Assembly (NCBI RefSeq): GCF_000026545.1
Contig: NC_011601.1
Origin: Escherichia coli O127:H6 str. E2348/69
GTDB taxonomy: Bacteria > Pseudomonadota > Gammaproteobacteria > Enterobacterales > Enterobacteriaceae
Reading direction: 5' to 3' (one strand)
DNA length: 64,000 bases
Positions 1 through 16,224 of the stretch are shown here, in pieces. The stretch's first letter is position 1, and every line of letters starts with the position of its first letter. The position numbers were made by a program, and so were the translations under genes. The notes under the pieces were generated by a model, which worked only from the letters and a program-made list of their open reading frames with translations, was not told where the DNA came from and ran no database searches.

Positions 1-183
1 TGCGGTGATCCAGCCCTGGCCCTGACCTTTCAGGAAGCGCGGCACGCCTTCTTCAATAGAGGCGGTACACAACACTTTGGTATCGCCAAATTCGACCAGC
101 ACCGAGCCTTCTGCATGTTTTGTATAGTTACGAGTCAGGGTAACGGGACGCACCTGATTATTGCTACGGCCTGCTGGACGCAT
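1..183 (-). CDS. rph: RNase PH, N-terminal part (gene continues past window start)
   Basis: Reverse-strand translation from the ATG at 183-181 reads [61 protein letters not shown], recognisable as E. coli RNase PH. It is absent from the ORF track because it runs off the window. It is divergent from yicC as in K-12. Confidence 0.9.
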
Positions 184-309
184 ATTGAAATCTCCGGCTT
201 GAAACAAATGTGGCTGCGCATTATACGGACTTCCGGCGGTTATTCCTATCCTGACAAGGCATCGATGGCTATAATCCTTCCACCTCTCCTTTTATAAACA
301 GGAACGTCT

Positions 310-1173
310 ATGATCCGCAGTATGACCGCCTACGCCCGGCGTGAAATCAAGGGTGAATGGGGGAGCGCAACCTGGGAAATGCGCTCGGTAAACCAGCGTT
401 ATCTGGAAACTTACTTTCGTCTGCCGGAGCAGTTCCGTAGCCTTGAACCTGTCGTTCGTGAGCGTATTCGTTCTCGCCTGACGCGCGGTAAAGTGGAATG
501 TACCCTGCGCTATGAGCCCGATGTCAGCGCGCAAGGTGAGCTGATCCTCAACGAAAAACTGGCTAAACAGCTGGTAACTGCCGCGAACTGGGTAAAAATG
601 CAGAGTGACGAAGGGGAAATCAACCCGGTTGATATTCTCCGCTGGCCAGGCGTGATGGCGGCCCAGGAACAGGATCTCGACGCGATTGCCGCTGAAATTC
701 TCGCGGCGCTGGATGGTACGCTGGACGACTTTATCATCGCGCGCGAAACCGAAGGTCAGGCGCTGAAAGCATTGATCGAGCAGCGTCTGGAAGGCGTGAC
801 CGCCGAAGTGGTCAAAGTCCGCGCCCACATGCCGGAAATCCTGCAATGGCAGCGTGAGCGTCTGGTGGCTAAGCTGGAAGACGCCCAGGTGCAACTGGAA
901 AACAACCGTCTGGAGCAGGAGTTGGTTCTGCTGGCACAACGAATTGACGTTGCCGAAGAGTTGGACCGCCTCGAAGCGCATGTTAAAGAGACCTACAACA
1001 TTCTGAAGAAAAAAGAAGCCGTTGGTCGTCGTCTGGACTTTATGATGCAGGAGTTCAACCGCGAGTCGAACACCCTGGCCTCGAAGTCTATCAATGCCGA
1101 AGTGACTAACTCCGCCATTGAGCTGAAAGTGTTGATCGAGCAGATGCGCGAGCAGATTCAGAATATTGAATGA
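310..1173 (+). CDS. yicC: YicC-family stress-induced protein, 287 aa
   Basis: The 287-aa ORF MIRSMTAYARREIKGEWGSATWEMRSVNQRYLE... matches remembered E. coli YicC. It has the K-12 position next to rph. Confidence 0.9.
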   Translation: MIRSMTAYARREIKGEWGSATWEMRSVNQRYLETYFRLPEQFRSLEPVVRERIRSRLTRGKVECTLRYEPDVSAQGELILNEKLAKQLVTAANWVKMQSDEGEINPVDILRWPGVMAAQEQDLDAIAAEILAALDGTLDDFIIARETEGQALKALIEQRLEGVTAEVVKVRAHMPEILQWQRERLVAKLEDAQVQLENNRLEQELVLLAQRIDVAEELDRLEAHVKETYNILKKKEAVGRRLDFMMQEFNRESNTLASKSINAEVTNSAIELKVLIEQMREQIQNIE

Positions 1174-1212
1174 TTTTGCATGCTGTCGCATGAAATTGCA
1201 AAAATCCATCAT

Positions 1213-1237
1213 AGCCCGCATTTTGCGGGCTTTTTTA
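1213..1237 (+). terminator. Rho-independent terminator of yicC
   Basis: The hairpin GCCCGC-ATTTT-GCGGGC is followed by a T6 run, 40 nt after the yicC stop. Confidence 0.75.
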
Positions 1238-1281
1238 TTTTCATACTGTCGCATATGATTGCATAGCATCGCGCAAAACAT

Positions 1282-1300
1282 TTGTACCCAAGACTGTACC
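1282..1300. repeat. attL core, direct repeat TTGTACCCAAGACTGTACC
   Basis: It is identical to 12406-12424. An inverted copy of its left half (TGGGTACAAA, 1325-1334) lies just before the int start. Confidence 0.85.
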
Positions 1301-1360
1301 TTTAATAATTTATCCAATTCATTTTGGGTACAAAATGATAGTCAATATTCAGGTGAAACT

Positions 1361-2620
1361 ATGGCAAAGCTGACAGATATCCAAATCAAGTCATGGATTA
1401 AGGCAGGAGAACGCTTCGAGGGGCGCTCTGACGGCAACGGGCTATACCTTCGCTATCGAGTGGGGGATAAAGTGCCTGTATGGCGTTTTCGATATCAGTT
1501 CGCTGGGAAATCACGGGTAATGCTTATTGGATCTTATAGCGAAATATCCCTTTCCAAAGCACGGGAAATAGCCAAGGAATTATCCGCACGTGTAGCCCTG
1601 GGCTTCGATGTCGCCGGGGAAAAGAAAGCGCGAAAAGCGGCTGCTATAGAAAAGATGGAGCGGGAGAAAAACGCGCTTCGCGTGTCAGAGCTAGCAACCG
1701 AGTATTTCGAACGGCAGATTTTGGGACGCTGGAAACATCCCGATCTTCTGCGCCGGAGAATCGATAAGGATATCAACCCACATATTGGCAACATGAAGAT
1801 AGAGGACGTAAAACCCCGTCATATTGATGCGATGCTACAGAGCGTTGTTGATCGTGGCGCTCCAACCGTAGCTAATGACGTTCTGCGCTGGACTAAACGC
1901 ATATTCGATTATGCTATCAAGCGTCATGCACTGGAATTAAACCCAGCTGGAGCATTTGATCTGTCAGACGCTGGCGGGCAGGAAAGTAGCCGTATGCGCT
2001 GGCTGACCCGTGAAGAACTTATACGTTTTTTCCAAGCTATGCGCACTGCAAAAGGATTCAGCCGCGAGAACGAGCTGACCATGAAGCTAATCCTCTGCCT
2101 GTGTTGTCGCAAAATGGAGCTGTGCGGTGCTCAGTGGGATGAATTCGACCTTGATGAAGCAGTGTGGCATCTACCAGCAGAACGCGTTAAAAACGGCGAC
2201 GCTATTGATATACCACTACCTCCACCTGCGGTTGGTTGGTTGAGAGAGCTTCGCACTATCGCGGGCAGTGGGAGTAAATGGGTTCTCCCCGCGCGGAAGA
2301 TGCAACACCGCATGATTCCCCACATTCAGGAAAGCACACTCCCAGTGGCGCTGGCAAAAGTACGCCGCGAAATGCCAGAAGTACCAAACTTCACAATTCA
2401 CGATTTCAGGCGTACCGCCCGCACCCATTTAGCGGCGTTGGGTGTCGATCCCGTAGTCGCAGAACGTTGCCTGAATCACCGCATTAAAGGCGTTGAGGGT
2501 ATCTACAACCGCCACCAGTACTTTGAAGAACGACGGGCAGCCCTGGAACTGTGGGCGGGGCTTCTGGTTTCGCTTGAACGAGGGGAAAACTACAATGTTA
2601 TTCCTTTATCTAAAATATAA
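1361..2620 (+). CDS. int: Tyrosine recombinase, P4-type integrase (N-terminal DUF4102-like arm-binding domain plus catalytic domain), 419 aa
   Basis: MAKLTDIQIKSWIKAGERFEGRSDGNGLYLRYRVGDKVPVWRFRYQFAGKSRVMLIGSY is the typical P4/CP4-57 integrase N-terminus. The C-terminal part has HDFRRTARTHL and a terminal ...GIYNRH... tyrosine region. An AGGTGA SD lies 5 nt upstream of the ATG at 1361. Confidence 0.9.
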   Translation: MAKLTDIQIKSWIKAGERFEGRSDGNGLYLRYRVGDKVPVWRFRYQFAGKSRVMLIGSYSEISLSKAREIAKELSARVALGFDVAGEKKARKAAAIEKMEREKNALRVSELATEYFERQILGRWKHPDLLRRRIDKDINPHIGNMKIEDVKPRHIDAMLQSVVDRGAPTVANDVLRWTKRIFDYAIKRHALELNPAGAFDLSDAGGQESSRMRWLTREELIRFFQAMRTAKGFSRENELTMKLILCLCCRKMELCGAQWDEFDLDEAVWHLPAERVKNGDAIDIPLPPPAVGWLRELRTIAGSGSKWVLPARKMQHRMIPHIQESTLPVALAKVRREMPEVPNFTIHDFRRTARTHLAALGVDPVVAERCLNHRIKGVEGIYNRHQYFEERRAALELWAGLLVSLERGENYNVIPLSKI

Positions 2621-2636
2621 AAGTTTTGTTTGAAGG

Positions 2637-2739
2637 TATTCACCCTATTCACCTTTTTAATTAACTTCATGATTTTAAATAATAAAAAAGGGTGAATACT
2701 TACAGTAAAACTAATCACCTTAGTATTCACCTGTTCACC
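2637..2739. repeat. Iteron cluster (ori-like): six copies of T(A/G)TTCACC around an AT-rich spacer
   Basis: TATTCACC is at 2637, 2646 and 2724. TGTTCACC is at 2732. Degenerate TAATCACC is at 2712. Inverted GGTGAATA is at 2691. The 2654-2690 spacer is almost pure A/T. TGTTCACC is the type I iteron I recall being bound by P4 alpha protein at ori and crr. Confidence 0.65.
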
Positions 2740-2939
2740 TTCTAAAGCTGCTGTGGCTGCTCCCCTTGCCCGAAAACACGCCAGCCACCAGCGTTAAAAA
2801 AAACTACAAAAATCATCATCGTACAGATCTGTACGATGACGCCAGCACTCACCCTACAAAACAACCTAACTTATTGATTTCAAAAGTAGAGAAAATCTGC
2901 TTTATGCCACTAGCTCGCACCCGTCCCCAAAAAGAAAAA

Positions 2940-2966
2940 GCCCGCGCTGGAGACGCACGGGCTTTT
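2940..2966. terminator. Bidirectional hairpin terminator between the int/iteron region and the cargo operon
   Basis: GCCCGCG-N9-CACGGGC is flanked by A-rich sequence upstream and TTTT downstream, so a T-run follows the hairpin on both strands. Confidence 0.5.
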
Positions 2967-3123
2967 GGGTACCGATAACCATGTTTGGAATCAACTCATT
3001 GAGTTCTGACCTCAATTTGCATGTTATCACAAGAAAAACACATTGTAATAATTGCAACAACGAATATCATCATTGCATATAATGAAACATAAATATCCGA
3101 TAGAACATACTGAGGTCTGACCG

Positions 3124-3675
3124 ATGCAAGATATTACAAACATCGCAGTGACTGGCGAAGATGGCGTGGTGACGTATGCCGACGGCAGTAAAGAGGAGTT
3201 CCAGTGCAGCGGAACCGTTGCGACCATCATTGCAAGTCTTGCAACGACACTCGAGAAAGAACGCAAAATGCGCATCGCCACCGGCGACCGCCTGCGCCGC
3301 ATGTACACCCGCGACAGTGATATGATTTCCCGCGGTTTGAATGGCACGTCTGCTACTTCCACGGCACCGACAGCAATGAATGCTGAGTTCATGCGTCTGG
3401 TACGTGCCGTAGCGCCGAAATACGATTCAGCACTGCCCGACGCCGACCCGCGCATCGTTGCGCTCGATGTGCTGCGCTACGCCCCTGCTGAGGCGTTCAG
3501 CGCCGTACACCCTACCCCAATGTCAGAAATCCAGCTGGATCAGGCTATCGATATACTCGAGCAGGTTGGCGACTACATGAAAGCAAACAATATCGCTCCG
3601 AAAATAATTTCTACAGGAGACGCAATCCGCAGCATCAATGCTGACAACGCCACCTTCTGGGGCAAAAAACACTAA
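3124..3675 (+). CDS. Hypothetical protein, 183 aa (cargo operon 1, gene 1)
   Basis: A GAGG SD lies about 9 nt upstream of the ATG. I recognise no family. The C-terminal motif INADNATFW is shared with the next ORF. Confidence 0.65.
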   Translation: MQDITNIAVTGEDGVVTYADGSKEEFQCSGTVATIIASLATTLEKERKMRIATGDRLRRMYTRDSDMISRGLNGTSATSTAPTAMNAEFMRLVRAVAPKYDSALPDADPRIVALDVLRYAPAEAFSAVHPTPMSEIQLDQAIDILEQVGDYMKANNIAPKIISTGDAIRSINADNATFWGKKH

Positions 3676-3688
3676 AGAGATATGAAGC

Positions 3689-3877
3689 ATGTCTATCTAT
3701 GACCCGAAATTAGCCGCAGGCAACCCACAGCGCGCCCACCGCCCAATGCTGACCCGTCAGGATCTTGAAACGGCAAAGGCACGCAATAACTTCGATCGCC
3801 AGAGTCGCAACCTGCAGCAACTCAACGAATCAAATGCACGGTTCTGGAGTGAACAGAATGAGAAAGCCAAACGTTAA
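3689..3877 (+). CDS. Hypothetical small protein, 62 aa (cargo operon 1, gene 2)
   Basis: It starts 13 nt after gene 1. It carries LNESNARFW, similar to the gene 1 C-terminus. Its 3' end overlaps the gene 3 start by 20 nt. Confidence 0.5.
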   Translation: MSIYDPKLAAGNPQRAHRPMLTRQDLETAKARNNFDRQSRNLQQLNESNARFWSEQNEKAKR

Positions 3878-4034
3878 GCCGGTCCTGCTGTCCGCCGAGC
3901 AGATGCAGGCCATACGCAACATTCAGGAACGTGAACGCCAGCGCTCCAATCTCGGCGTCGCTCCCACCGTTCACCAGATTGCCCGCGGCCTCATGGCTAA
4001 GGCTCTGGCCTCACTGGCAAGCGAGGGCGCGTAA
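3858..4034 (+). CDS. Small putative ribbon-helix-helix-like protein, 58 aa (cargo operon 1, gene 3)
   Basis: The ATG at 3858 has a GGAG SD 8 nt upstream, within the longer track ORF 3765-4034. MRKPNVKPVLLSAEQMQAIRNIQERERQR...TVHQIARGLMAKALASL has a strand-helix-helix pattern. The stop overlaps the next start as TAATG. Confidence 0.5.
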   Translation: MRKPNVKPVLLSAEQMQAIRNIQERERQRSNLGVAPTVHQIARGLMAKALASLASEGA

Positions 4035-4765
4035 TGGGCGCCATTCACCAGATATATGAGCAGGAAATGTTCTATAACTGGATAGGCGATGGTAAACGAT
4101 GTGTAGCATTCCACGAAGCGGGCCATGCAGTAGCCGCATGGCTTATTCGCTTAGATATGCAGGTTATCGCCATTATGGATGAATCCGGCTACGTTGCTGG
4201 CGAACATGTACATGAAGCCCAGTGTTTGGGCGTTGTTAAACACGGCATAATCCACAGCCACGATCTCAGGCGTTTGCGGGAGAGTAAATCTGGTGTAGTT
4301 GGGCACGATGGCAAAGTTATCCCTTTCATACGCTACTACGCGGAAGGTATAAAGCGCGATGCAACAAAGGCCGCTTTTGTAGCCCTCGCTGGACCAGTAA
4401 GCGAAGCCATTTACGAAAATAACGAAATTTTCAATATAAAGTATTCACTCCCTCACCGCTATGACATGGCTAACGTAAATGACATGCTCGATTTAATATG
4501 TGCCACGGATAAGCGAATTAACAGGAAGTTAATGCTTTCTAAACTTGTTGAAAAGACCAAATTCCTCATGACTCAATACTGGCCGGAAGTAGGAAAAATA
4601 GCGCATTTGCTTGAGCGGGATAACATTGTTAATGGCCGCGATGTTAGCTCGCTAATCGGCCTCAACGTCATTGACCGGGCAACGCCATTTTTGGTATCTG
4701 ACTTGAGCAGTACATTTGCTCATCTCCCGTACTCGTCCCTGCCTCCGAATGAATTAGCAACTTGA
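4034..4765 (+). CDS. Stand-alone FtsH-like (peptidase M41-type) zinc metalloprotease domain protein, 243 aa, with no AAA+ module and no TM segment
   Basis: FHEAGHAVAAW (HEAGH at nt 4112-4126) matches the FtsH zinc site. Later segments (VALAGPVSEAIY, MANVNDMLDLI, KIAHLLERDNIVNGRDVSSLI) parallel the FtsH protease domain by eye. There is no Walker A/B. Confidence 0.7.
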   Translation: MGAIHQIYEQEMFYNWIGDGKRCVAFHEAGHAVAAWLIRLDMQVIAIMDESGYVAGEHVHEAQCLGVVKHGIIHSHDLRRLRESKSGVVGHDGKVIPFIRYYAEGIKRDATKAAFVALAGPVSEAIYENNEIFNIKYSLPHRYDMANVNDMLDLICATDKRINRKLMLSKLVEKTKFLMTQYWPEVGKIAHLLERDNIVNGRDVSSLIGLNVIDRATPFLVSDLSSTFAHLPYSSLPPNELAT

Positions 4766-4777
4766 AGACAGTAAAGT

Positions 4778-4802
4778 AGCCATGCATTTAACACGCATGG
4801 CT
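4778..4802. terminator. Bidirectional hairpin between the two convergent cargo operons
   Basis: A perfect 8-bp stem AGCCATGC / GCATGGCT with a 9-nt loop lies in the 47-nt gap between the stops at 4765 and 4813. Confidence 0.55.
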
Positions 4803-4812
4803 ATGTGAACAT

Positions 4813-6036
4813 TTAAGAATTAGAGCGCTTAGGCGATCGCGTAAATTGCACTAAAGCCCCTTTATGATCGTTAGCCTGCACATCACGATGCTCAACCAAC
4901 ATAGATTTTAATTTTGCCAGATGCACAACAGCAGCCTTCTTGCCAGTCAGGTACCCCTCGGGCAAACCAGCAATCATTTCCACATCAATAGCAGATAAAC
5001 CTGCGAATGCAGCAAGCCGTTCAACTGAAATGATTCCAGACGATGCCAGCAATTCAATAGTACGTTTCAACAAACGTGGTTTTTCAGGCTCACGATAATC
5101 ATCTCCCGGCTCTGATTTCGCTCCCCAACGTGCTGAACGACGCTTATAAAGATTTTGTTTCTCTTCTTCCGTAATAATATGCAGCACATGTAAACGCATG
5201 ATACTTGCCGCAACGGAAATACCATAGCGTTGTTTAATTAAAAGCAAGCTATCTAATGTTACCGGGGTCCTAATTTCTTCGGCAAATGTCTCAGCAGGAA
5301 GCAGCAGTGCTCCCGCAAATTTATGAGCCTGACTTTCCTTCAGCTTATAACGTTCGGCTTCGAGTTCGTTGCCAACATAGCGGTGAAGGATCAGATGACC
5401 AATTTCGTGAGCAAGGTCAAATCTGCTACGAAAAGCATTACCTTTATCTGAAGAGAGGAGAACAAAAGGAACACCTAAAGTCTCACTCCAGGCAGAAAGC
5501 CCTTCAATCTGCGCAACGCCTGTTTCTTCTCTAATAACGATAATACCATTACTCTCTGCGGCTAAAGCAAGATCCGGTATTTCCTTTGTACCAAGATTCC
5601 AAAGAGCACGGCACTCATTAGCAGCGTCTTCAATATCTGCATCACTAATTTCATCAATGTTTGTAAAGCTACGACGCGGTAGTTTTAGCTCCGGCAGATC
5701 TACAAACTCAGTCAGCTTAGTAACTAACTCATTAGCCCAATGGATTCGAGTTTCTAACATTGCTCGTGCAGCTACATGAGCTGATGCATTGCTTCTGAAC
5801 AGAGGCTTTGACATCCCCTTCAACAGAGGGCGCGTAAACCATTCAGGTGTAACATTTACGACAGTGGCCAGACGTTCTAAAGCCTCAGACTCTGGAGCCT
5901 GTTGACCGGAACGCCATTTGCTAATGGTTGCTGGTGATACACCCACCATAGTAGCTAATTGAGTTTGTGATAGCCGCCGGGCGGCTAGTACCTGTGCTAA
6001 CCTGCCCGGTTGAAATTCGGCGACGCCTCGGCTCAT
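4813..6036 (-). CDS. XRE-family HTH fused to an ImmA/IrrE-type (M78, COG2856) zinc peptidase domain with a C-terminal extension, 407 aa
   Basis: The N-terminus LAQVLAARRLSQTQLATMVGVSPATISKWRSGQQAP is a classic XRE HTH. HEIGHLILH is at aa 210-218 (HEIGH at nt 5395-5409). The start overlaps the upstream gene stop as ATGA, with a GAGGAAG SD. Confidence 0.8.
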   Translation of the reverse strand: MSRGVAEFQPGRLAQVLAARRLSQTQLATMVGVSPATISKWRSGQQAPESEALERLATVVNVTPEWFTRPLLKGMSKPLFRSNASAHVAARAMLETRIHWANELVTKLTEFVDLPELKLPRRSFTNIDEISDADIEDAANECRALWNLGTKEIPDLALAAESNGIIVIREETGVAQIEGLSAWSETLGVPFVLLSSDKGNAFRSRFDLAHEIGHLILHRYVGNELEAERYKLKESQAHKFAGALLLPAETFAEEIRTPVTLDSLLLIKQRYGISVAASIMRLHVLHIITEEEKQNLYKRRSARWGAKSEPGDDYREPEKPRLLKRTIELLASSGIISVERLAAFAGLSAIDVEMIAGLPEGYLTGKKAAVVHLAKLKSMLVEHRDVQANDHKGALVQFTRSPKRSNS

Positions 6037-6680
6037 ACATTATCTTCCTCGGTTCCATCTTTTCTGATAATGCCCCTTTTGAGCCCAGGGAATGCATTAT
6101 CTTCTTGGGACGGAACTACATCATATCGGGTTAAAAAAAGTTCAAGTGGCTCATGAAAAACCCAGCGCTTCCCATCAGAACTTGGTACAACAAGCTCTAT
6201 AGACATCGGAGCTTCAGGCTGAATCTGCAACGAACCGGAAAAACGGCATACTACGAACAGTGTAGCTTTTGGCACATCAGAACCATCGGAGAATAAATCC
6301 GGTTGCACCATTTTTTCCACAAACACGTTCTCAGAAATGAGTTCTTGCTTACGTTTGCTACGGAATAATCTCTTCCACTGGTTATCATTGTAGCTTTCAC
6401 GAACAATCGTGAATATACCACTATGGCCTTCTACAATACGGTTACCACGCAGCTTTCCAGGATTACAACCGTTGGCCTCAAACACCTCATAAATAGTTTC
6501 ATTCAGGTTTAAATGACGATCATAACCAAGCGCGGTCGATCTGTGATCTAGCTTCTTCTTTTGAGCATAATCGTAAGAACGCTTTGATGCCGCGTAAATC
6601 GCGTCAGAAAGGGCCATGAAGAGTTGTTTTGAAACATTCTGAACGATGAGATCTGCCACTTTGGATTTTTTCACGACCAT
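6033..6680 (-). CDS. Hypothetical protein, 215 aa, first gene of cargo operon 2
   Basis: It is an intact ORF with an AGGA SD. It is translationally coupled (ATGA) to the XRE-ImmA gene. I recognise no family. Confidence 0.65.
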   Translation of the reverse strand: MVVKKSKVADLIVQNVSKQLFMALSDAIYAASKRSYDYAQKKKLDHRSTALGYDRHLNLNETIYEVFEANGCNPGKLRGNRIVEGHSGIFTIVRESYNDNQWKRLFRSKRKQELISENVFVEKMVQPDLFSDGSDVPKATLFVVCRFSGSLQIQPEAPMSIELVVPSSDGKRWVFHEPLELFLTRYDVVPSQEDNAFPGLKRGIIRKDGTEEDNV

Positions 6681-6683
6681 TTC

Positions 6684-6702
6684 CTATCACTGTCACTGAT
6701 AG
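6684..6702. promoter_or_regulatory. Operator-like inverted repeat CTATCA-N7-TGATAG at the start of cargo operon 2
   Basis: CTATCACTGTCACTGATAG lies 4 nt upstream of the 6680 start codon, overlaps the SD, and contains an internal tandem TCACTG. Confidence 0.45.
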
Positions 6703-7209
6703 CCGTGATTTTATATCAGTATTTTTTCGTGTGTCCATAACGCAATCAATTATTTTTTCCTTTGTCAGCAAGAATTATATAAAAAGCACTATCATGACAG
6801 GATTTGGGCCACTAACCTTTCACAGACTCTTGAAGTCCTAGAAAAAAGCAATGGCACAAGGTGTCCTTGCCGGGAGAAAAATCATCTGGCTACCAGCAAC
6901 CTTATAGATTCCAGATCAACGTAATATCAAAGTAAAACGTCCATTTCCGGTACCATATTTGGTCATTACGACGGGGGAAACTTATACCCACTGCTGCCCC
7001 ATCGTCAGCGCCGACAGGGACCTATGCCGCAAGGTATAAGGCAAAATTGGCATTTTCGCTATTCCCCCTGCCCGTATTTTTTGGCTTACTGGAATTTCTC
7101 TATCTAACACAATGAACTTGAGGCTATTCCGACAGGGAGAAAAGCGATCTACGCCTGACCGCCTGCCTCAGCAATCATCCAGGCAAGTACGTGTGTAAGG
7201 CTAACGCGA

Positions 7210-7890
7210 ATGAGTGATTTTTATTCCCCTCTACCAAGCTATGATCTTGTCCGGGCAGCGGAGATGCTGACTGATAAGGGGGCAAATTGTACCGGTAACG
7301 ATTTATTGGAACTATGGAACCAAGGCGTTATCGAGTTGTGTTTTTCTCTGCCGGACTACATTGCTTGTGAAGATGTTAATTTTCCCGGGCATGGTCACAG
7401 CATTTTGTTATCCGTGGATCCGATTAGCTTCAACCTTTTCTGGCTAAATGTTGATTACCCACCGAACTTAAATGCTAACTTTTCTGTGAAAGAATATGGC
7501 TCAGATAGTGAATTCCATGAGCAGTCCCTATGGATACCAACAGAACCGCACTACAACACTCACCATGATAACGGGGAAGGGCTTTGCGAAGCGTTAAGGA
7601 ATACTTATGGCCGGGAAAATTTACGAATACCAGGTGTCGAATTGCAAAAGGTTTGGCGCTTTTTGATCGGTCAGCCTTATGAAAAAAAGCCAACGCCTGA
7701 GCGTATCACCGCTAAGCAATGCCGCTTTATCGTCGCATTACTCAGATCGTATAACCTGACTGACGATGATTTTAAGGGGAGCATTAGGGACCTGAGAATT
7801 AAGATATCTAACCGGATCCCTTCAATCGGTGATCCTGAAATCGATGATAATACCCTTACTGACTGGCTGAAGAAGGGAGGGGTTCGGTAG
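7210..7890 (+). CDS. Hypothetical protein, 226 aa, first gene of the rightward alpA operon
   Basis: It is an intact ORF after a 529-bp intergenic region. I recognise no family. Confidence 0.6.
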   Translation: MSDFYSPLPSYDLVRAAEMLTDKGANCTGNDLLELWNQGVIELCFSLPDYIACEDVNFPGHGHSILLSVDPISFNLFWLNVDYPPNLNANFSVKEYGSDSEFHEQSLWIPTEPHYNTHHDNGEGLCEALRNTYGRENLRIPGVELQKVWRFLIGQPYEKKPTPERITAKQCRFIVALLRSYNLTDDDFKGSIRDLRIKISNRIPSIGDPEIDDNTLTDWLKKGGVR

Positions 7891-7891
7891 C

Positions 7892-7928
7892 TGAGTTTTC
7901 ATAACTCCGATGAGTTTTCAATAACTCC
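7892..7928 (+). repeat. Tandem direct repeat TGAGTTTTCA(A)TAACTCC x2
   Basis: The copies are at 7892-7908 and 7911-7928 and differ by one extra A. They lie immediately after the 7890 stop. Confidence 0.7.
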
Positions 7929-7957
7929 CCCACCCGTAACCACCTACCCCGTAGCCT

Positions 7958-7993
7958 TGCGATTACCTTCTCACTCAATAGCAGGTAATCGCA
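7958..7993 (+). promoter_or_regulatory. Hairpin able to sequester the alpA SD and start codon
   Basis: There is a perfect 10-bp inverted repeat, TGCGATTACC (7958-7967) and GGTAATCGCA (7984-7993). The right arm contains the AGGTAA SD and the A of the ATG. Confidence 0.45.
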
Positions 7994-8205
7994 TGAAATC
8001 GCAAACTTTCACCTTTCCTACCAATGGCAACGCACGAGCCAAACAAGTGGCGCACTATCTTGGAGTGCATATCAGCACCGTATGGCGCTATGCAAAACGT
8101 CCTGATTTTCCAAAACCCCACCAGTTAACCGACGGCGTGACCGTCTTTGACGCCGCAGCTATTCGCCAATGGAACAAGCAAAAAACCGGGGGTGAGAATG
8201 CTTAA
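7993..8205 (+). CDS. alpA: AlpA-family (MerR-like HTH) phage/island regulatory protein, 70 aa
   Basis: RAKQVAHYLGVHISTVWRYAKRPDFPKPHQLTDGVTVFDAAAIRQWNKQK matches the AlpA/Vis-type pattern. Confidence 0.8.
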   Translation: MKSQTFTFPTNGNARAKQVAHYLGVHISTVWRYAKRPDFPKPHQLTDGVTVFDAAAIRQWNKQKTGGENA

Positions 8206-8259
8206 CGCGACCGTGAGCACACCCTGCACGACAGCCGTTCGATCTCCATTGTTGGCGGG

Positions 8260-8454
8260 TCAGGCTTTCGGCTCAATACCCAGCCGCTGGAGTTCTTTGC
8301 GCCCCAAGGTTTTCATCCAATTAGCTAAACTCATACCTGCATCTCGTGCGGCGGCCTCGAATTGCTCTTTCAATTCTGGGGCGATCCTCACTTGGAAAGC
8401 TGGTGCCTTTCCCCTGCCTTTGGGCTGTTTATCACGCTGTATTACTGTTGACAT
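8260..8454 (-). CDS. Ribbon-helix-helix (Arc/CopG-type) DNA-binding protein, 64 aa
   Basis: MSTVIQRDKQPKGRGKAPAFQVRIAPELKEQFEAAARDAGMSLANWMKTLGRKEL is a typical RHH signature. The start is chosen at the internal Met of track ORF 8260-8547. Confidence 0.65.
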   Translation of the reverse strand: MSTVIQRDKQPKGRGKAPAFQVRIAPELKEQFEAAARDAGMSLANWMKTLGRKELQRLGIEPKA

Positions 8455-8458
8455 GTAT

Positions 8459-8512
8459 GTACCTATTAAACTAAGATTCAAATCAATAGGTACGCACCTT
8501 AACATGTTAAGG
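8459..8512. promoter_or_regulatory. Divergent operator region: a 9-bp inverted repeat plus a 16-bp perfect palindrome
   Basis: GTACCTATT (8459-8467) pairs with AATAGGTAC (8485-8493). CCTTAACATGTTAAGG is at 8497-8512. Both lie between the RHH gene start (8454) and the rightward operon start (8589). Confidence 0.5.
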
Positions 8513-8588
8513 TCAGAAAAGACAACGCCCCGTAGTGCTCGCAACACATACGGGGCGTCTAACCAACAACGTTACGGAGACTAACGCT

Positions 8589-8789
8589 ATGGCTAAGCCG
8601 CAGTGTACCCAAACTCACCCCAAATATCAGTATCGTTTTATGGCGCTCGATCGCGCTGACCGCCAGGCAAAACCCTGCAAAATCATTGTTGAGGCCACCA
8701 GCGAGCATGAAGCACGTAAGGTGTTGGCACCTCACTACATCCTGTCACTGTCCGCCGTTTTGCCAGTTCAGGAGGTGAGCCATGTTTAA
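8589..8789 (+). CDS. Small protein, 66 aa, possibly Icd-like (host cell division inhibitor-like)
   Basis: The ATG has a GGAGA SD 8 nt upstream. MAKPQCTQTHPKYQYRFMALDRADRQAKPCKIIVEATSEHEARKVL resembles my memory of Icd-like proteins found upstream of primases in P4-like islands. This is unverified. Confidence 0.45.
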   Translation: MAKPQCTQTHPKYQYRFMALDRADRQAKPCKIIVEATSEHEARKVLAPHYILSLSAVLPVQEVSHV

Positions 8790-8976
8790 TGTCATTGTCA
8801 CGGTCACCTATCACTTTTCGGGAACGATCCGTCGTTTTGCTATTCCGGAACGTTTCAATAATCGTGAGCTCGCAGAGAAAGCGGCGCAGCAGTTAACCCA
8901 TACCAGCTATCTGGATGATGGAGTGAGCAGAATTGTGACCCACGCGGCGGAAGTAGTGGAGGTGCGCCATGTATGA
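8782..8976 (+). CDS. Hypothetical small protein, 64 aa
   Basis: Its start overlaps the previous stop by 8 nt (translational coupling). I recognise no family. Confidence 0.5.
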   Translation: MFNVIVTVTYHFSGTIRRFAIPERFNNRELAEKAAQQLTHTSYLDDGVSRIVTHAAEVVEVRHV

Positions 8977-9157
8977 CGCCTACCTGAACCCAAAGGACGC
9001 ACTCCGTCCGATCGCCGTTGCACTCGAGGCTGCGCAGTTTATCGCGCTTGACCCGGAGAATACCGATTTAGCCCATGAGCTGATCGCCTGGGCACTTGAA
9101 ACAGCCGCGCGTGCCTCAGCTGCGCAACGTAACACCCCGGAGGTGGACAATGCTTAA
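8969..9157 (+). CDS. Hypothetical small protein, 62 aa
   Basis: Its start overlaps the previous stop by 8 nt. I recognise no family. Confidence 0.5.
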   Translation: MYDAYLNPKDALRPIAVALEAAQFIALDPENTDLAHELIAWALETAARASAAQRNTPEVDNA

Positions 9158-9458
9158 TCTCAATACATGGAATCTTTTCACGCTGCCGCTGAACGGTGGC
9201 GCAGCTGAGACAGCGCCGGACGATCTGCGTCTGCTGGCCGCTGTGGGGGACGAGGCTCGCAACAACTACCTGCGCGGTGTAAGCGCCATCGGCAATCTGA
9301 TCTTCTGGGCATGTGATAACCCCAACTACACCGACCATCAAGCTGACCTGCCAGCGCTGGGCGCATTCCTGAAACATACCGCTGATATGGCGCGCGCTGC
9401 CGAATTCATGGCAGGACATCTGGACTCACTGGCTGACGGCAAAGAGGGAGGCAAATAA
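9150..9458 (+). CDS. Hypothetical protein, 102 aa
   Basis: The internal ATG at 9150 has a GGAGG SD and overlaps the previous stop (ATGCTTAA). I recognise no family. Confidence 0.5.
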   Translation: MLNLNTWNLFTLPLNGGAAETAPDDLRLLAAVGDEARNNYLRGVSAIGNLIFWACDNPNYTDHQADLPALGAFLKHTADMARAAEFMAGHLDSLADGKEGGK

Positions 9459-9679
9459 TGCCACGCAAACATCGCTCATCAAGCAACCTGATCAAATTAA
9501 TGGAACGCCAGAAAGGTATAGGGCGCGACGATATCCAGATCGCAGATAATCGCCCTACATTCATGCCGTACGAGCCGAACGGAACCTACGCTACAAACCG
9601 CCATACCCGCCGTATGCTACGCAAGCTCCACGGCATCCAGGCAAAAAGAATGTGTGATCTGAAAGGAGGTCAGAAATGA
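9458..9679 (+). CDS. Hypothetical basic small protein, 73 aa
   Basis: It overlaps the previous gene as TAATG, and its stop overlaps the primase start as ATGA. Confidence 0.5.
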   Translation: MPRKHRSSSNLIKLMERQKGIGRDDIQIADNRPTFMPYEPNGTYATNRHTRRMLRKLHGIQAKRMCDLKGGQK

Positions 9680-12090
9680 GTGGATTCGATCACCTGATGG
9701 AGCAGGGGCAGAAACGCACCCCTGCTCGTTTTACTGCAAATAGCTTTTCTGACCTGTGCAACGCTATTCTATCGCATCGTGTGCAAATTTCCATCACACA
9801 GGAAATGACGGATGAAGAACGGCGCAAAGAAAAGCAGAAACTGTACTGGTTCTCGGCAACTACCCAGCAGGACGGGCAGCGACGTAAACCCGAAAACATG
9901 GCACCGTGTGCTTTCGGTATGCTGGACATTGACGGCAGCACTCCCGGTGCAATCACAGCACTTGTACAGGTGTTCCGGCGATACTCAATGCTGGTGTACC
10001 AGACGGCCAGCTATACGACGGATGAACCTCGTCTGCGTATTGTGTGCGAGCTTTCCCGAGCGGTTGAATCTGACTACCGCCGAGCGACAGGCGAATCCAT
10101 AGAAACTTTGTTGATGCAGGAGGCTGGATTCTCATTCGCCAGCCTGGCGGATAAGAAAGCACGCTGGGAGAACGGCAGCGATTATGTTGTCTTTGACCGC
10201 AATGTATACGGCGCTCAAAGCTATTGCTACTGTCCACACACTGGAGCGAAAGCCCAGAATTACGCGGGCGCGGTAATCGACGTAGGGGCGTTACCGGAAC
10301 CCGCCCAGCCACCAGCGAAGGCGGCCAAAAGCAAGGCAAAGAAACAGCGCCAGCGTGACGCCGCGGCGGTAATAGATGCTGATTTTGACGATCTGAGCGC
10401 CGGACCGGATAACTTCCTTATCGCCGACCTGCGCAGCGCACTCTGGTTTCCCTCCATGCTGCAAAAGGCATGGGACAATGGGGCGTGGATTGAGCAGGGC
10501 TACCGCCTTGCATCTCTCAAAGGCACCGATTTTGAGGACGACGCGCGGCAACTGTGGGTCGAGTGGTCATTGACCGCAGCGGATGGCTGGCCTGATGAAG
10601 AACTTGATGAAGTCGCGGCACAACGCTGGAATGGTCTCGCCCCTGACAAAACCAGCTATAAAGCTATTTTTACTGATGCTCAGGCGCAGGGGTGGAATAA
10701 TCCGGGCAAATGGCGAGCAAAGGCCGCGTACATTGAGAAAATGGCCCCCAGCACACGCGGTGAACTGCTGGCGCAATATTACGGCAACGTATGCCTGAAA
10801 GCTGATGGCAACATGGTTTATCACTATACCGGGCAGGTGTGGGAGCACATCGCCGATGCCGAGTTGCGCCGCCAGCTTTCGCAGATTTTCAAAGATAACG
10901 GGGTCCCCTTTACACCGTACGAGGTTAAAAGCGCGATTGAGGCTATGGGAATGCTTCTGCCTTTAATGGGAGAAACTCCTCGTAACCTGATTGGCTTTGC
11001 CAACGGCGTTTATGATCTCGAGGCGCAGCGATTCCGCCCCCACTGCCCAGACGATTGGCTGACCAGCCATAACGGCGTTGAATACACGCAGCCGGTTAAA
11101 GGCGAAACCCTGAAAAACAATGCCCCAAACTTCTGGCGCTGGCTGCATCATTCCGCAGGGGGCGACTTCGACAAAATGGAGAGAATCAAAGCCGCTCTGT
11201 ATATGGTGCTGGCAAACCGCTACGACTGGCAACTGTTCATCGAGGTTACCGGTGCTGGTGGCAGTGGTAAAAGCGTGTTCACGGGTATTGCACGTATGCT
11301 GACGGGCGAACTACACGCCACCAGCGGCACAATGGAGGACATGGACACCGCGCGCGAACGCGCATCTTTTGTCGGCAAAAGCCTGATCACCCTACCCGAC
11401 CAAGCAACATATACGGGTTCCGGGCCGGGTATCAAGGCTATAACGGGCGGCGACGTGGTAAGGATCGACCCAAAGCACGAAAAGCCATTCCATACGGTTA
11501 TTCGCGCCGTTGTCATCGCAACAAACAACGAACCTATGCGTTTCACCGAACGACAAGGCGGGATATCGCGGCGCCGGGTTATTTTCCCGTTTAACCATGA
11601 AGTGCCGGAGGCGGAACGTGATCCCCATCTGCTCGATAAAATTAAAGCCGAACTGCCGGTAATCGTCCGTGGTCTGCTGATTGACTTCGAACAGCCAGGC
11701 AAAGCCAAATCGCTACTTATCGCGCAGCGTGATTCAGCGGAAGCGCTGCAGGTGAAGAACGATAACGACCCGATGTATGGCTTTTGCTCTTACCTGCTAG
11801 GTTTGCCGAATCCCGAGGGCATGTACATGGGCGATGGGCGCATGGCGCGAGAGCCACGCATCTACCTCTATCATGCTTATCTGGCCTATCTGGAAGCCTA
11901 CGGTTATCAGAGAACCCCCACCCTACCGAAGTTCAGCGGAGATTTACGGGACACGCTCAAAGCCTTTGGTATTACTCTGGACAGTAAAAAGAGTAAAAAG
12001 GGCAAAAGATATAACGTCAATTTGTCTGACAGGGCACAAGAATGGCTGGGAGAAGACGAACTCTCAGCTGTGCCCGACACATTGCAGTAA
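9676..12090 (+). CDS. P4 alpha-like replication protein: N-terminal primase-like domain, PriCT-2-like region, D5_N/SF3 helicase P-loop, 804 aa
   Basis: Walker A GAGGSGKS is at nt 11251-11274. The surrounding ...ANRYDWQLFIEVTGAGGSGKSVF...IKAITGGDVVRIDPKHEKPF...ATNNEPMRF...GGISRRRVIFPF matches the phage/plasmid primase P4-family C-terminal domain. A candidate DxD (LDIDG) is at nt 9925-9933. Confidence 0.85.
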   Translation: MSGFDHLMEQGQKRTPARFTANSFSDLCNAILSHRVQISITQEMTDEERRKEKQKLYWFSATTQQDGQRRKPENMAPCAFGMLDIDGSTPGAITALVQVFRRYSMLVYQTASYTTDEPRLRIVCELSRAVESDYRRATGESIETLLMQEAGFSFASLADKKARWENGSDYVVFDRNVYGAQSYCYCPHTGAKAQNYAGAVIDVGALPEPAQPPAKAAKSKAKKQRQRDAAAVIDADFDDLSAGPDNFLIADLRSALWFPSMLQKAWDNGAWIEQGYRLASLKGTDFEDDARQLWVEWSLTAADGWPDEELDEVAAQRWNGLAPDKTSYKAIFTDAQAQGWNNPGKWRAKAAYIEKMAPSTRGELLAQYYGNVCLKADGNMVYHYTGQVWEHIADAELRRQLSQIFKDNGVPFTPYEVKSAIEAMGMLLPLMGETPRNLIGFANGVYDLEAQRFRPHCPDDWLTSHNGVEYTQPVKGETLKNNAPNFWRWLHHSAGGDFDKMERIKAALYMVLANRYDWQLFIEVTGAGGSGKSVFTGIARMLTGELHATSGTMEDMDTARERASFVGKSLITLPDQATYTGSGPGIKAITGGDVVRIDPKHEKPFHTVIRAVVIATNNEPMRFTERQGGISRRRVIFPFNHEVPEAERDPHLLDKIKAELPVIVRGLLIDFEQPGKAKSLLIAQRDSAEALQVKNDNDPMYGFCSYLLGLPNPEGMYMGDGRMAREPRIYLYHAYLAYLEAYGYQRTPTLPKFSGDLRDTLKAFGITLDSKKSKKGKRYNVNLSDRAQEWLGEDELSAVPDTLQ

Positions 12091-12109
12091 CTTGTAAAAA
12101 ATCACCAAG

Positions 12110-12131
12110 AACCCCGTAAATCGGGGTTTTT
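12110..12131 (+). terminator. Rho-independent terminator after the primase gene
   Basis: AACCCCG-TAAAT-CGGGGTT is followed by a T-run, 20 nt after the stop. Confidence 0.75.
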
Positions 12132-12152
12132 GTCTATTTATTAGTCTGAAAG

Positions 12153-12254
12153 GGTGAACAGGTGCGCATACCTTAACAAAGCTGTTCACTCTAATAATTT
12201 TCTTTAATATCAGTACACTACCCGCAATAAGTGAACAGATGGACGGGGTGAACA
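12153..12254. repeat. Second iteron cluster (crr-like): four copies of GGTGAACA / TGTTCAC
   Basis: GGTGAACA is at 12153-12160 and 12247-12254. TGTTCACT is at 12183-12190. AGTGAACA is at 12230-12237. An AT-rich spacer lies between them. It is the same octamer family as 2637-2739. Confidence 0.6.
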
Positions 12255-12405
12255 CTTCACACCTATAGCGCGAAATATTTTAATATTTGCAGTTGAATTG
12301 CAATCCTTGAAAACAGAAACGCGTAGCAAAACGTAGAGTGCTGAAAAAATTTTGTTGGGGAGCAGTTCAAACTGCATGAGCAATTTTCAAGCACTCCTCT
12401 TTGTC

Positions 12406-12424
12406 TTGTACCCAAGACTGTACC
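12406..12424. repeat. attR core, direct repeat TTGTACCCAAGACTGTACC
   Basis: It is identical to 1282-1300. Confidence 0.85.
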
Positions 12425-12653
12425 CAATAGAAAAAATAGAAAATAAAAACTCAGCAATAGCAGCGATTGGTTACACTACTCAACATTCAGATTCAACTCG
12501 TAACGCCAATTCTTACTTTTCAGCCTTCACAAATGCCGCCCACTCAAACAGAGCGGCATTTTTCTTCCCCGCAACTTCAATTCTGTTTTGCGTGCCTGCT
12601 CCAGATTTTGCGATGTTTTTTTGCCCAGCGCAGTGAGAACGTGAGATACTCAC

Positions 12654-12673
12654 AACTGTATATAAACACAGTT
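12654..12673 (+). promoter_or_regulatory. LexA (SOS) box of dinD
   Basis: AACTGTATATAAACACAGTT fits CTGT-N8-ACAG and lies 44 nt upstream of the dinD start. Confidence 0.8.
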
Positions 12674-12716
12674 GTAGACTTACTTTCCTTGCAATCGATA
12701 TCACATGGAGTGGGCA

Positions 12717-13541
12717 ATGAACGAACATCATCAACCTTTTGAAGAGATAAAGCTGATTAATGCAAACGGAGCAGAACAATGGTCAGCAAGACAACTTGGG
12801 AAACTACTGGGTTATTCAGAGTATCGTCACTTTATACCTGTATTAACGCGCGCCAAAGAAGCTTGTCTGAATAGTGGTCACACAATTGATGACCATTTCG
12901 AGGAGATCCTCGATATGATCAAAATTGGCTCAAATGCCAAAAGAGCATTAAAAGACATCGTACTCTCCCGCTATGCCTGTTACCTGGTAGTACAAAACGG
13001 CGACCCTGCGAAACCGGTTATTGCGGCAGGGCAAACTTATTTTGCTATCCAGACCCGACGGCAGGAGCTGGCTGACGATGAAGCTTTCAGGCAACTTCGT
13101 GAAGACGAAAAGCGTCTTTTTCTGAGAAATGAGTTGAAAGAACATAACAAACAATTAGTTGAGGCAGCGCAGCAAGCTGGGGTAGCGACAGCTATCGATT
13201 TCGCCATATTTCAGAATCATGGTTACCGGGGGCTGTATGGTGGATTAGATCAGAAAGCCATCCATCAGCGGAAGGGGCTGAAAAAGAGTCAGAAGATCCT
13301 GGATCATATGGGTTCAACAGAACTGGCGGCTAATCTCTTTCGAGCTACCCAAACAGAAGAAAAACTCAAGCGGGATGGCGTGAATTCAAAACAGCAAGCT
13401 AACACCACACACTTTGACGTGGGTCGCAAGGTGAGGCAAACCATTCAGGAACTTGGCGGAACCATGCCTGAGGAGTTGCCGACCCCGCAGGTCAACATCA
13501 AGCAGTTGGAAAACAGTGTAAAAATTACAGAGAAGAAATAG
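12717..13541 (+). CDS. dinD: DNA-damage-inducible protein D, 274 aa
   Basis: MNEHHQPFEEIKLINANGAEQWSARQLGKLLGYSEYRHF... matches remembered K-12 DinD. The start is taken at the second Met of the track ORF. Confidence 0.9.
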   Translation: MNEHHQPFEEIKLINANGAEQWSARQLGKLLGYSEYRHFIPVLTRAKEACLNSGHTIDDHFEEILDMIKIGSNAKRALKDIVLSRYACYLVVQNGDPAKPVIAAGQTYFAIQTRRQELADDEAFRQLREDEKRLFLRNELKEHNKQLVEAAQQAGVATAIDFAIFQNHGYRGLYGGLDQKAIHQRKGLKKSQKILDHMGSTELAANLFRATQTEEKLKRDGVNSKQQANTTHFDVGRKVRQTIQELGGTMPEELPTPQVNIKQLENSVKITEKK

Positions 13542-13832
13542 CAGAAACTAAAAACTCTTTTTGTTGATTGAGATACCCGATGCGTAAGCCAAAGTCCAGG
13601 TGCGGTGAACACAATGGCTAAACATTGCACCTTTCTTTTCCACCCCTCAATTTTAACCTATTTTTTCTTATGCATTCTCTCAGACAAGAAGTCAGAAGAA
13701 TGCATCTACGCTACAGAAAATAGCGATTTCACATAACTACAAGTTATCAATTTCCTCTCACCTTAAAAAATCTCAATCGTGACAATACGCACAAATCGCT
13801 ACCCTGCCAGACAGATTTTTAGGGAGAGAACC

Positions 13833-16224
<2,392 letters not shown>

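Follow-up and report, generated by a model that had tools for sequence, protein, structure and literature searches.

What does the gene directly in front of alpA do in the P4-like satellites of enterobacteria, and is it part of their core or a passenger? The question is raised by a 64-kb stretch of an enteropathogenic Escherichia coli (EPEC) E2348/69-type chromosome, here called the window, in which an open reading frame (ORF) of 226 amino acids (aa), at positions 7210-7890 on the + strand, precedes alpA in an island of about 11 kb. We use the name X for this ORF and for its family members in other islands. The original prediction, made from the window alone, had described an intact ORF of no recognised family, the first gene transcribed rightward before alpA; this description was borne out, since alpA (7993-8205, same strand; PF05930, E 5e-7), encoding an AlpA/Vis-type regulator and the presumed control target, is the next gene, and neither the whole X protein nor its homologs have any match in Pfam, PHROGs, NCBIfam or PADLOC. 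The reading that we prefer, with a confidence slightly short of even, is that X would be the satellite's sequence-specific, operator-binding regulator gating alpA. The evidence for it is comparative and comes from the way in which one part of X and the DNA next to it vary together among islands.

Concerning the gene itself, an in-frame TGA at 7156-7158 closes the upstream frame, and for this reason ATG 7210 is the first possible start; a Shine-Dalgarno sequence, TAAGG, lies 9 nt upstream of it, and the N-terminus reads M-[STN]-D-F in all homologs. When the modules of X described below were compared with those of homologs, the ratio of nonsynonymous to synonymous substitution rates (dN/dS) was 0.11-0.12 for each of them (0.12 for the middle domain against that of locus L002), with synonymous sites saturated in the comparison of the C-terminal module. 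Because every module gives such values, X is, by this measure, a real protein-coding gene under purifying selection. The exact target ORF, at 100% identity, was found in 7 of 5,426 complete genomes.

The protein had also been called an orphan, and this did not hold. A word-indexed search found 12 clusters of X relatives, and an exhaustive search with a hidden Markov model (HMM) in 1.84 billion representative sequences found 177 clusters at E<=1e-3, 65 of them at E<=1e-10. Members with a source name are all called 'hypothetical protein' and none has a Pfam domain; the named hosts are Escherichia, Salmonella, Klebsiella, Morganella, Xenorhabdus, Citrobacter and Aeromonas. In the loci of Citrobacter sp. 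FP75 (L010, 5443-6192) and Xenorhabdus (L009, 5562-6201) the X homolog is broken into two ORFs or has a frameshift, and these may be decaying copies or sequencing errors.

X is a modular protein. Domain HMMs were built from the search hits, and the counts that follow refer to 159 sequences, which fall into a short class of about 210-285 aa, to which the target belongs, and a long class of about 260-340 aa. A conserved N-terminal motif of about 40 residues (residues 7-45, positions 7228-7344, +) is present in 133 of the 159; it is predicted to fold as helix-loop-helix-strand, with a pattern like that of a helix-turn-helix (HTH), and the AlphaFold2 (AF2) model places helices at residues 13-21 and 29-37. 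It is followed by a variable, beta-rich middle domain (residues ~48-165, 7352-7704, +), for which AF2 confidence is low and whose type in the target is shared by only 26 members, and by a C-terminal module (residues 167-226, 7708-7887, +), a four-helix domain with a conserved G-S-I..L-R.K-I segment. This module, which we call A, is found in 109 members, while modules B and C are found in 9 and 14. AF2 is confident only for module A, with four helices and a predicted local distance difference test score (pLDDT) of 74-80. According to hhalign, modules A and B align in register, though weakly (P 1.1e-3, probability 21%), and A and C show no relation. Two types of N-terminal and middle part combine with modules A and B in all four possible ways: 1 with A in the window, 1 with B in L002 and L018, 2 with A in Salmonella, and 2 with B in the sister islands of E. 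coli. These combinations show that the N-terminal/middle and C-terminal parts of X are, to judge from the alleles compared, independently exchangeable modules.

The DNA that follows X changes together with the C-terminal module. We compared the loci of 16 island types and of one 19-kb circular Klebsiella 'plasmid' (L029). The spacer between X and alpA measures 90-139 nt in all loci, and its 5' part holds two tandem palindromes, the first beginning 2-15 nt after the X stop codon. In the window these are O1 (GAGTT-N5-AACTC, 7893-7907) and O2 (GAGTT-N6-AACTC, 7912-7927), candidate operators whose centres are 19.5 bp apart. The sequence of the palindromes depends on the C-terminal module of X. With module A they appear as two copies of GAGTT-N5/6-AACTC (window, L003, L007, L008 and L009, and partly L016), the divergent A sub-variants of L022 and L024 having variant half-sites; with module B they are of the GGAATATTCC type, in two copies in L011, L012 and L025 and in one copy within one mismatch in L002 and L018; with module C there are two to three copies of CCGGTAG-N1-3-CTACCGG (L026, L028), and next to the unclassified module of L020 the palindrome is CAAATT-N6-AATTTG. 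The A motif occurs only twice in the 64 kb of the window, at O1 and O2, against 0.17 matches expected, and no perfect palindrome copies were found elsewhere within each 10-16-kb locus. A sites are kept, in the same place after module A, from E. coli to Aeromonas and Xenorhabdus, while the remaining spacer is unalignable.

Could the palindromes belong to AlpA rather than to X? In E. coli A34 the AlpA protein has the same accession as that of the window and the 3' half of the spacer is identical to the window's, yet X carries module B and is followed by B sites (GGAACATTCC/GAATATTCC); moreover, AlpA types I and II are each found with both A and B sites. Such combinations show palindrome type to be independent of the AlpA allele, at least among the alleles at hand, and since AlpA types and site types combine freely, AlpA is excluded as the partner that co-varies with the palindromes. 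Because the sites follow the C-terminal module and not AlpA, the unit that travels together is, in these comparisons, the module plus its palindromes, a cassette with one recombination junction in the X linker and another halfway along the spacer. A swappable C-terminal module accompanied by its own palindromes suggests a specificity switch for the timing of satellite activation.

The 3' part of the spacer travels with alpA and folds into a hairpin of 8-15 bp, in which the Shine-Dalgarno sequence is taken up by the 3' arm; this arm extends to the ATG, which it includes in Aeromonas. In the window the hairpin (7958-7993, +; arms GCGATTACC / GGTAATCGC) extends over the Shine-Dalgarno sequence of alpA as far as the A of its ATG. 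The alpA 5' hairpins were assessed by shuffle tests made for each sequence: that of the window has a free energy of -16.9 kcal/mol and a z-score of -5.4, with 0 of 200 shuffles as stable, and equivalent hairpins are present in 11 of 12 distinct loci (z -3.0 to -6.2; 0-1 of 200 shuffles as stable), the loci besides the window being L002, L003, L007, L008, L010, L016, L020, L022 and L024-L026. The arms have unrelated sequences in different lineages, and Rfam contains no family at this position. We consider the hairpin a candidate translational lock or fold-back-inhibition element. As regards transcription, no terminator was predicted on the + strand between X and alpA and a sigma-70 promoter scan of the + strand called no promoter; by eye, only weak promoter matches were seen at the palindromes and the hairpin, for example TTTTCA-18-AATAAC and TTGCGA-16-TAGCAG.

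On its other side X is preceded by the int-alpA RNA motif (Rfam RF02996), which in the window lies at 7117-7184 (+), ends 25 nt before the X ATG and passes the gathering score (39.4 bits against 35.8, over the full-length model 1-71). In 14 of 17 island types the motif precedes X at a distance of 15-25 nt, and it scores 38-64 bits in the 13 besides the window. In the minimal islands, where the integrase is the gene directly upstream of X, it begins about 8 nt or less from the int stop codon, filling the gap of about 96 nt between this codon and the X start, so that no room is left for an ordinary promoter; this makes an intercistronic attenuator or leader more likely than a small RNA standing on its own. 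The idea that it belongs to X exclusively was ruled out, since in contigs of IMG/VR the core of the motif is likewise found before an unrelated HTH protein (L015, L019) and, in a phage contig, before an HNH/AP2-like gene (L017); because of these occurrences the RNA is best described as a portable element. No complementarity between leader RNA and alpA hairpin that was consistent across loci could be seen by eye.

How might these parts work together? In the mechanism that we propose, the C-terminal four-helix module would dimerise on the palindromes, and X bound there would control transcription that begins before alpA or arrives there from upstream. The middle domain would receive an input, most plausibly a helper-phage protein, and AlpA would then be made only when a suitable helper is active. 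AlpA is the master activator of Gram-negative phage-inducible chromosomal islands (PICIs), acting on excision and replication, and its expression rises on helper induction (PMC11773190). Since the promoter matches at the palindromes and the hairpin are only weak, the polarity of regulation is left open, with repression somewhat favoured over activation. In the repression version X would be a brake comparable to Stl or CI, also blocking read-through from int and X, and the hairpin at the alpA ribosome-binding site (RBS) would be a second lock; repression with a roadblock fits constitutive read-through combined with such an RBS lock. In the activation version X would turn on a weak promoter inside the hairpin DNA, and only transcripts from this internal promoter would be without the 5' arm and hence translatable.

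Against a DNA-binding X weighs the fact that the sites adjoin the module, so that linkage alone could give the pairing, and that the best fold matches of module A, namely the Slx4 C-terminal conserved domain (CCD; PF09494) and FF domains, with scores below usual significance, are protein-interaction domains. X could indeed be a non-DNA-binding adaptor, antirepressor or helper sensor, with the palindromes bound by something else, a hypothesis that we judge unlikely but worth serious attention: its middle domain would bind a helper protein or a repressor, as P4 epsilon does, its Slx4-CCD/FF-like module would dock on a satellite or host partner, and the palindromes would track the module merely through adjacency. 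This hypothesis, however, gives no account of module-specific palindrome pairs placed at the same 2-15 nt offset, nor of palindromes kept across genera in a spacer that otherwise diverges, and no other protein co-varying with the sites is apparent, AlpA being excluded by the factorial pattern of alleles. The roles that had been suggested from position fare differently in this respect: an antirepressor or interference protein is possible but leaves the palindromes after X unexplained, while a helper-phage sensor is compatible with our data, the hypervariable middle domain being a plausible candidate sensor.

It had also been proposed that X is cargo rather than core, and in its more specific form this would make X an accessory anti-phage or interference effector co-expressed with alpA. 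X is indeed more AT-rich than the replication genes, as the original prediction had stated (GC content ~0.445, against 0.51-0.57 from alpA to the primase), and as low in GC as the adjacent cargo; its alleles turn over rapidly, and the int-alpA slot can hold accessory genes in other PICIs (PMC11773190). In 15 of 16 island types, from seven genera, alpA is nevertheless directly preceded by an X family member, whether or not the RosmerTA anti-phage system is present, the exception being Xenorhabdus L009, in which X is followed by a small ORF and a P4-type isrK/C4 region. The position is fixed even in the cargo-free minimal islands of Aeromonas (L007, L008, L024, L026-28), Citrobacter (L010), Klebsiella (L020) and Morganella (L022), while in other islands cargo lies between int and X, RosmerTA in the window, in Salmonella, in the E. 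coli sister islands and in L018, and an AAA/S8/CoiA-like set in L025. Moreover, all 17 E. coli genomes with the replication backbone of the island have an X allele in the slot, 7 the target allele and 10 an allele of type 2 with module B (272-275 aa). Given this fixed slot in 15 island types and in the 17 E. coli backbones, X is, as far as gene order tells, core by position while its sequence turns over. X also has no PADLOC match, both the leader RNA before it and the sites downstream of it are conserved, and at the level of whole modules dN/dS of 0.12 indicates no diversifying selection. An effector role therefore seems improbable to us, and AT-richness and allele turnover reflect, in our view, a specificity cassette that evolves fast in a fixed place. 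Not every alpA island has a family member: CP4-57 of E. coli K-12 has the unrelated and oppositely oriented yfjH between intA and alpA. YfjH was considered as a relative and rejected, having no match to any of the family HMMs, and no int-alpA RNA was found near yfjH.

A third component of RosmerTA is what X would be according to the least credible of the hypotheses, to which we give almost no weight. The leftward operon of the window (4813-6036 and 6033-6680, both on the - strand) matches the PADLOC RosmerTA profiles, its two genes encoding RmrA (407 aa, 4813-6036, HTH_3 and Peptidase_M78, PADLOC E 3.5e-125) and RmrT (215 aa, 6033-6680, PADLOC E 8e-16), and X divergently adjoins RmrT/RmrA in the window, in the Salmonella and E. 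coli sister islands and in L018. X occurs, however, without RosmerTA in L002, L007, L008, L010, L020, L022, L024 and L026-28 and matches no RosmerTA profile, and the loci free of RosmerTA effectively refute the hypothesis. The operon bears also on the 'control region' from which X was said to be transcribed: this region, to the left of X, is largely a cargo boundary, and the divergent HTH-peptidase gene taken for a control gene of the island encodes the RosmerTA antitoxin RmrA. To judge from these profiles, the operon is anti-phage cargo between the int-side genes and the X-alpA module, not the island repressor. In the islands of Salmonella and in the E. coli sister islands this slot is taken by another RosmerTA-like pair, with proteins of 239 and 370 aa.

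The logic that we propose for X is known from other systems. Stl, the repressor of Staphylococcus aureus pathogenicity islands (SaPIs), has a DNA-binding part and a variable part that binds a helper-phage protein to derepress the island, and this would be, by analogy, the logic of X. Both are encoded by satellites at the head of an activation module and both are very diverse between islands; there is, however, no similarity of sequence or fold, Stl is divergent from its target while X is co-directional with alpA and upstream of it, and the putative DNA-binding module of X is, unlike that of Stl, C-terminal. In lambdoid immunity cassettes a protein specificity module and the adjacent palindromes are swapped together, as in X, but the protein family differs, the sites of X lie downstream of the gene and not in a divergent promoter region, and the X cassette holds only part of a gene, its C-terminal module. 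X thus resembles Stl and the lambdoid cassettes in its proposed logic, but belongs to neither. P4 epsilon is a satellite early-operon protein that acts on the helper, derepressing the P2 prophage; it has no similarity to X and is not known to have cognate DNA sites of its own. The likeness of module A to Slx4 CCD and FF domains, which are eukaryotic interaction modules, is at the fold level only, and homology cannot be claimed.

Another resemblance is that between the N-terminal motif of X and the winged HTH of the AlpA, P4 Vis and excisionase type, which share a strand, a helix 'RAA.LL', a turn 'GC' and a helix 'DI.hW...G', although X is three to four times longer than AlpA and has additional domains. 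In hhalign the motif aligns in register with the AlpA HTH (columns 7-39 against 8-40), but weakly (probability 19%, P 1.2e-3). None of 38 N-terminal segments reaches the gathering score of AlpA or HTH_17 (PF05930, PF12728), to which the whole protein has no match; below it, HTH_17 matches one segment (E 0.15) and HTH_26 three (best E 0.0048). More generally, scans of N- and C-terminal segments member by member gave only scattered sub-threshold Pfam matches, and a sequence profile search of the PDB with the N-terminal motif gave no match. Matches of module A to pentatricopeptide proteins in the PDB were rejected, being due to a short motif (TLIDWLKKAG/TLIDGLCKAG) summed over repeats with no significant single stretch, as was a Foldseek search with the full-length AF2 model, whose pLDDT of 54 makes it meaningless (best E 0.4, template modelling score <0.2). 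No assignment to a characterised family, which would have gone against the original prediction, came out of these searches. The target and two long-class members have no match in 50,697 phage records, and we found no account of the family in the searchable literature. X is rated here as a putative satellite master-switch regulator from an undescribed protein family.

In surveys of P4-like satellites the key components are int, alpA, primase alpha, psu, delta, sid and epsilon, and most other genes have no assignable function (PMC8628076). In the literature that could be searched, neither the mechanism keeping alpA off nor a helper sensor is established, and the locus provides a concrete candidate with defined parts, namely a leader RNA, a modular protein, two candidate operators and an RBS hairpin, for which natural allele swaps predict how simple experiments should turn out. 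Confirmation would mean that these satellites follow a control logic like that of Stl with proteins of an unrelated family; it would also account for the mosaic divergence between int and alpA and offer orthogonal regulator/operator pairs. A wider hypothesis, possible but in our opinion rather doubtful, is that the X family, its module-matched operators, the leader RNA and the RBS hairpin act together as the master switch by which a large group of Gram-negative P4-like satellites or PICIs senses its helpers. The middle domain would bind a specific helper-phage protein, and the C-terminal module would make up a portable, immunity-like cassette with its operators; if this is true, recombination of the halves of X would re-pair the helper sensed with the island controlled. 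At the very least, a family of 'hypothetical proteins' receives a name and a defined architecture.

The island itself is flanked by yicC (310-1173) and dinD (12705-13541), the latter intact in the window. A co-oriented P4-type tyrosine integrase (1259-2620), alpA and primase-helicase (9676-12090, D5-type, with D5_N, DUF5906 and Pox_D5) at the fixed yicC/dinD site assign it to the P4-like satellites or Gram-negative PICIs. The int-side backbone, which is 86% identical in the Salmonella and E. coli sister islands, includes a gene at 4034-4765 (+) that is conserved in these islands and whose 243-aa product has an FtsH/M41-like HEAGH zinc-protease motif with a sub-threshold Pfam match (E 4.5e-4). 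The RosmerTA operon is separated from X by a gap of 529 bp; an Icd-like gene and small ORFs follow alpA, and several small genes without known function are also present in the island. Among its larger ORFs, the only ones scanned, none corresponds to psu, sid or delta. No match to the C4 and isrK RNAs was found in positions 1-14000 at E<=1, and the island thus appears to be without the P4 CI-type C4/isrK immunity system. Such an immunity region, with isrK and the C4 antisense RNA, lies downstream of alpA in many X-bearing islands, and both RNAs are present in L009 (6602-6823), L020, L022, L026, L027 and L028.

Some further observations concern single loci. In two strains with sister islands dinD, next to the right end of the island, is annotated as a pseudogene (L011, 12743-13567; L012, 12715-13537), one copy having an internal stop and the other a frameshift. 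L029 is Klebsiella pneumoniae pKpvST101_3 (CP031370.2), a circle of 19,229 bp deposited as a non-mobilizable plasmid; it has genes for a P4-type integrase and for an X homolog of 290 aa, together with the int-alpA RNA, and may be an episomal satellite in a P4-like plasmid state. Two Aeromonas loci with module C alleles, L026 (5290-7189) and L028 (5095-6567), encode Ogr/Delta as well as a protein of 490 aa in which the N-terminal domain of the P2 GpO scaffold is fused to the major capsid protein of P2 (GPO/cap_P2), an arrangement of capsid genes that is unusual for a satellite.
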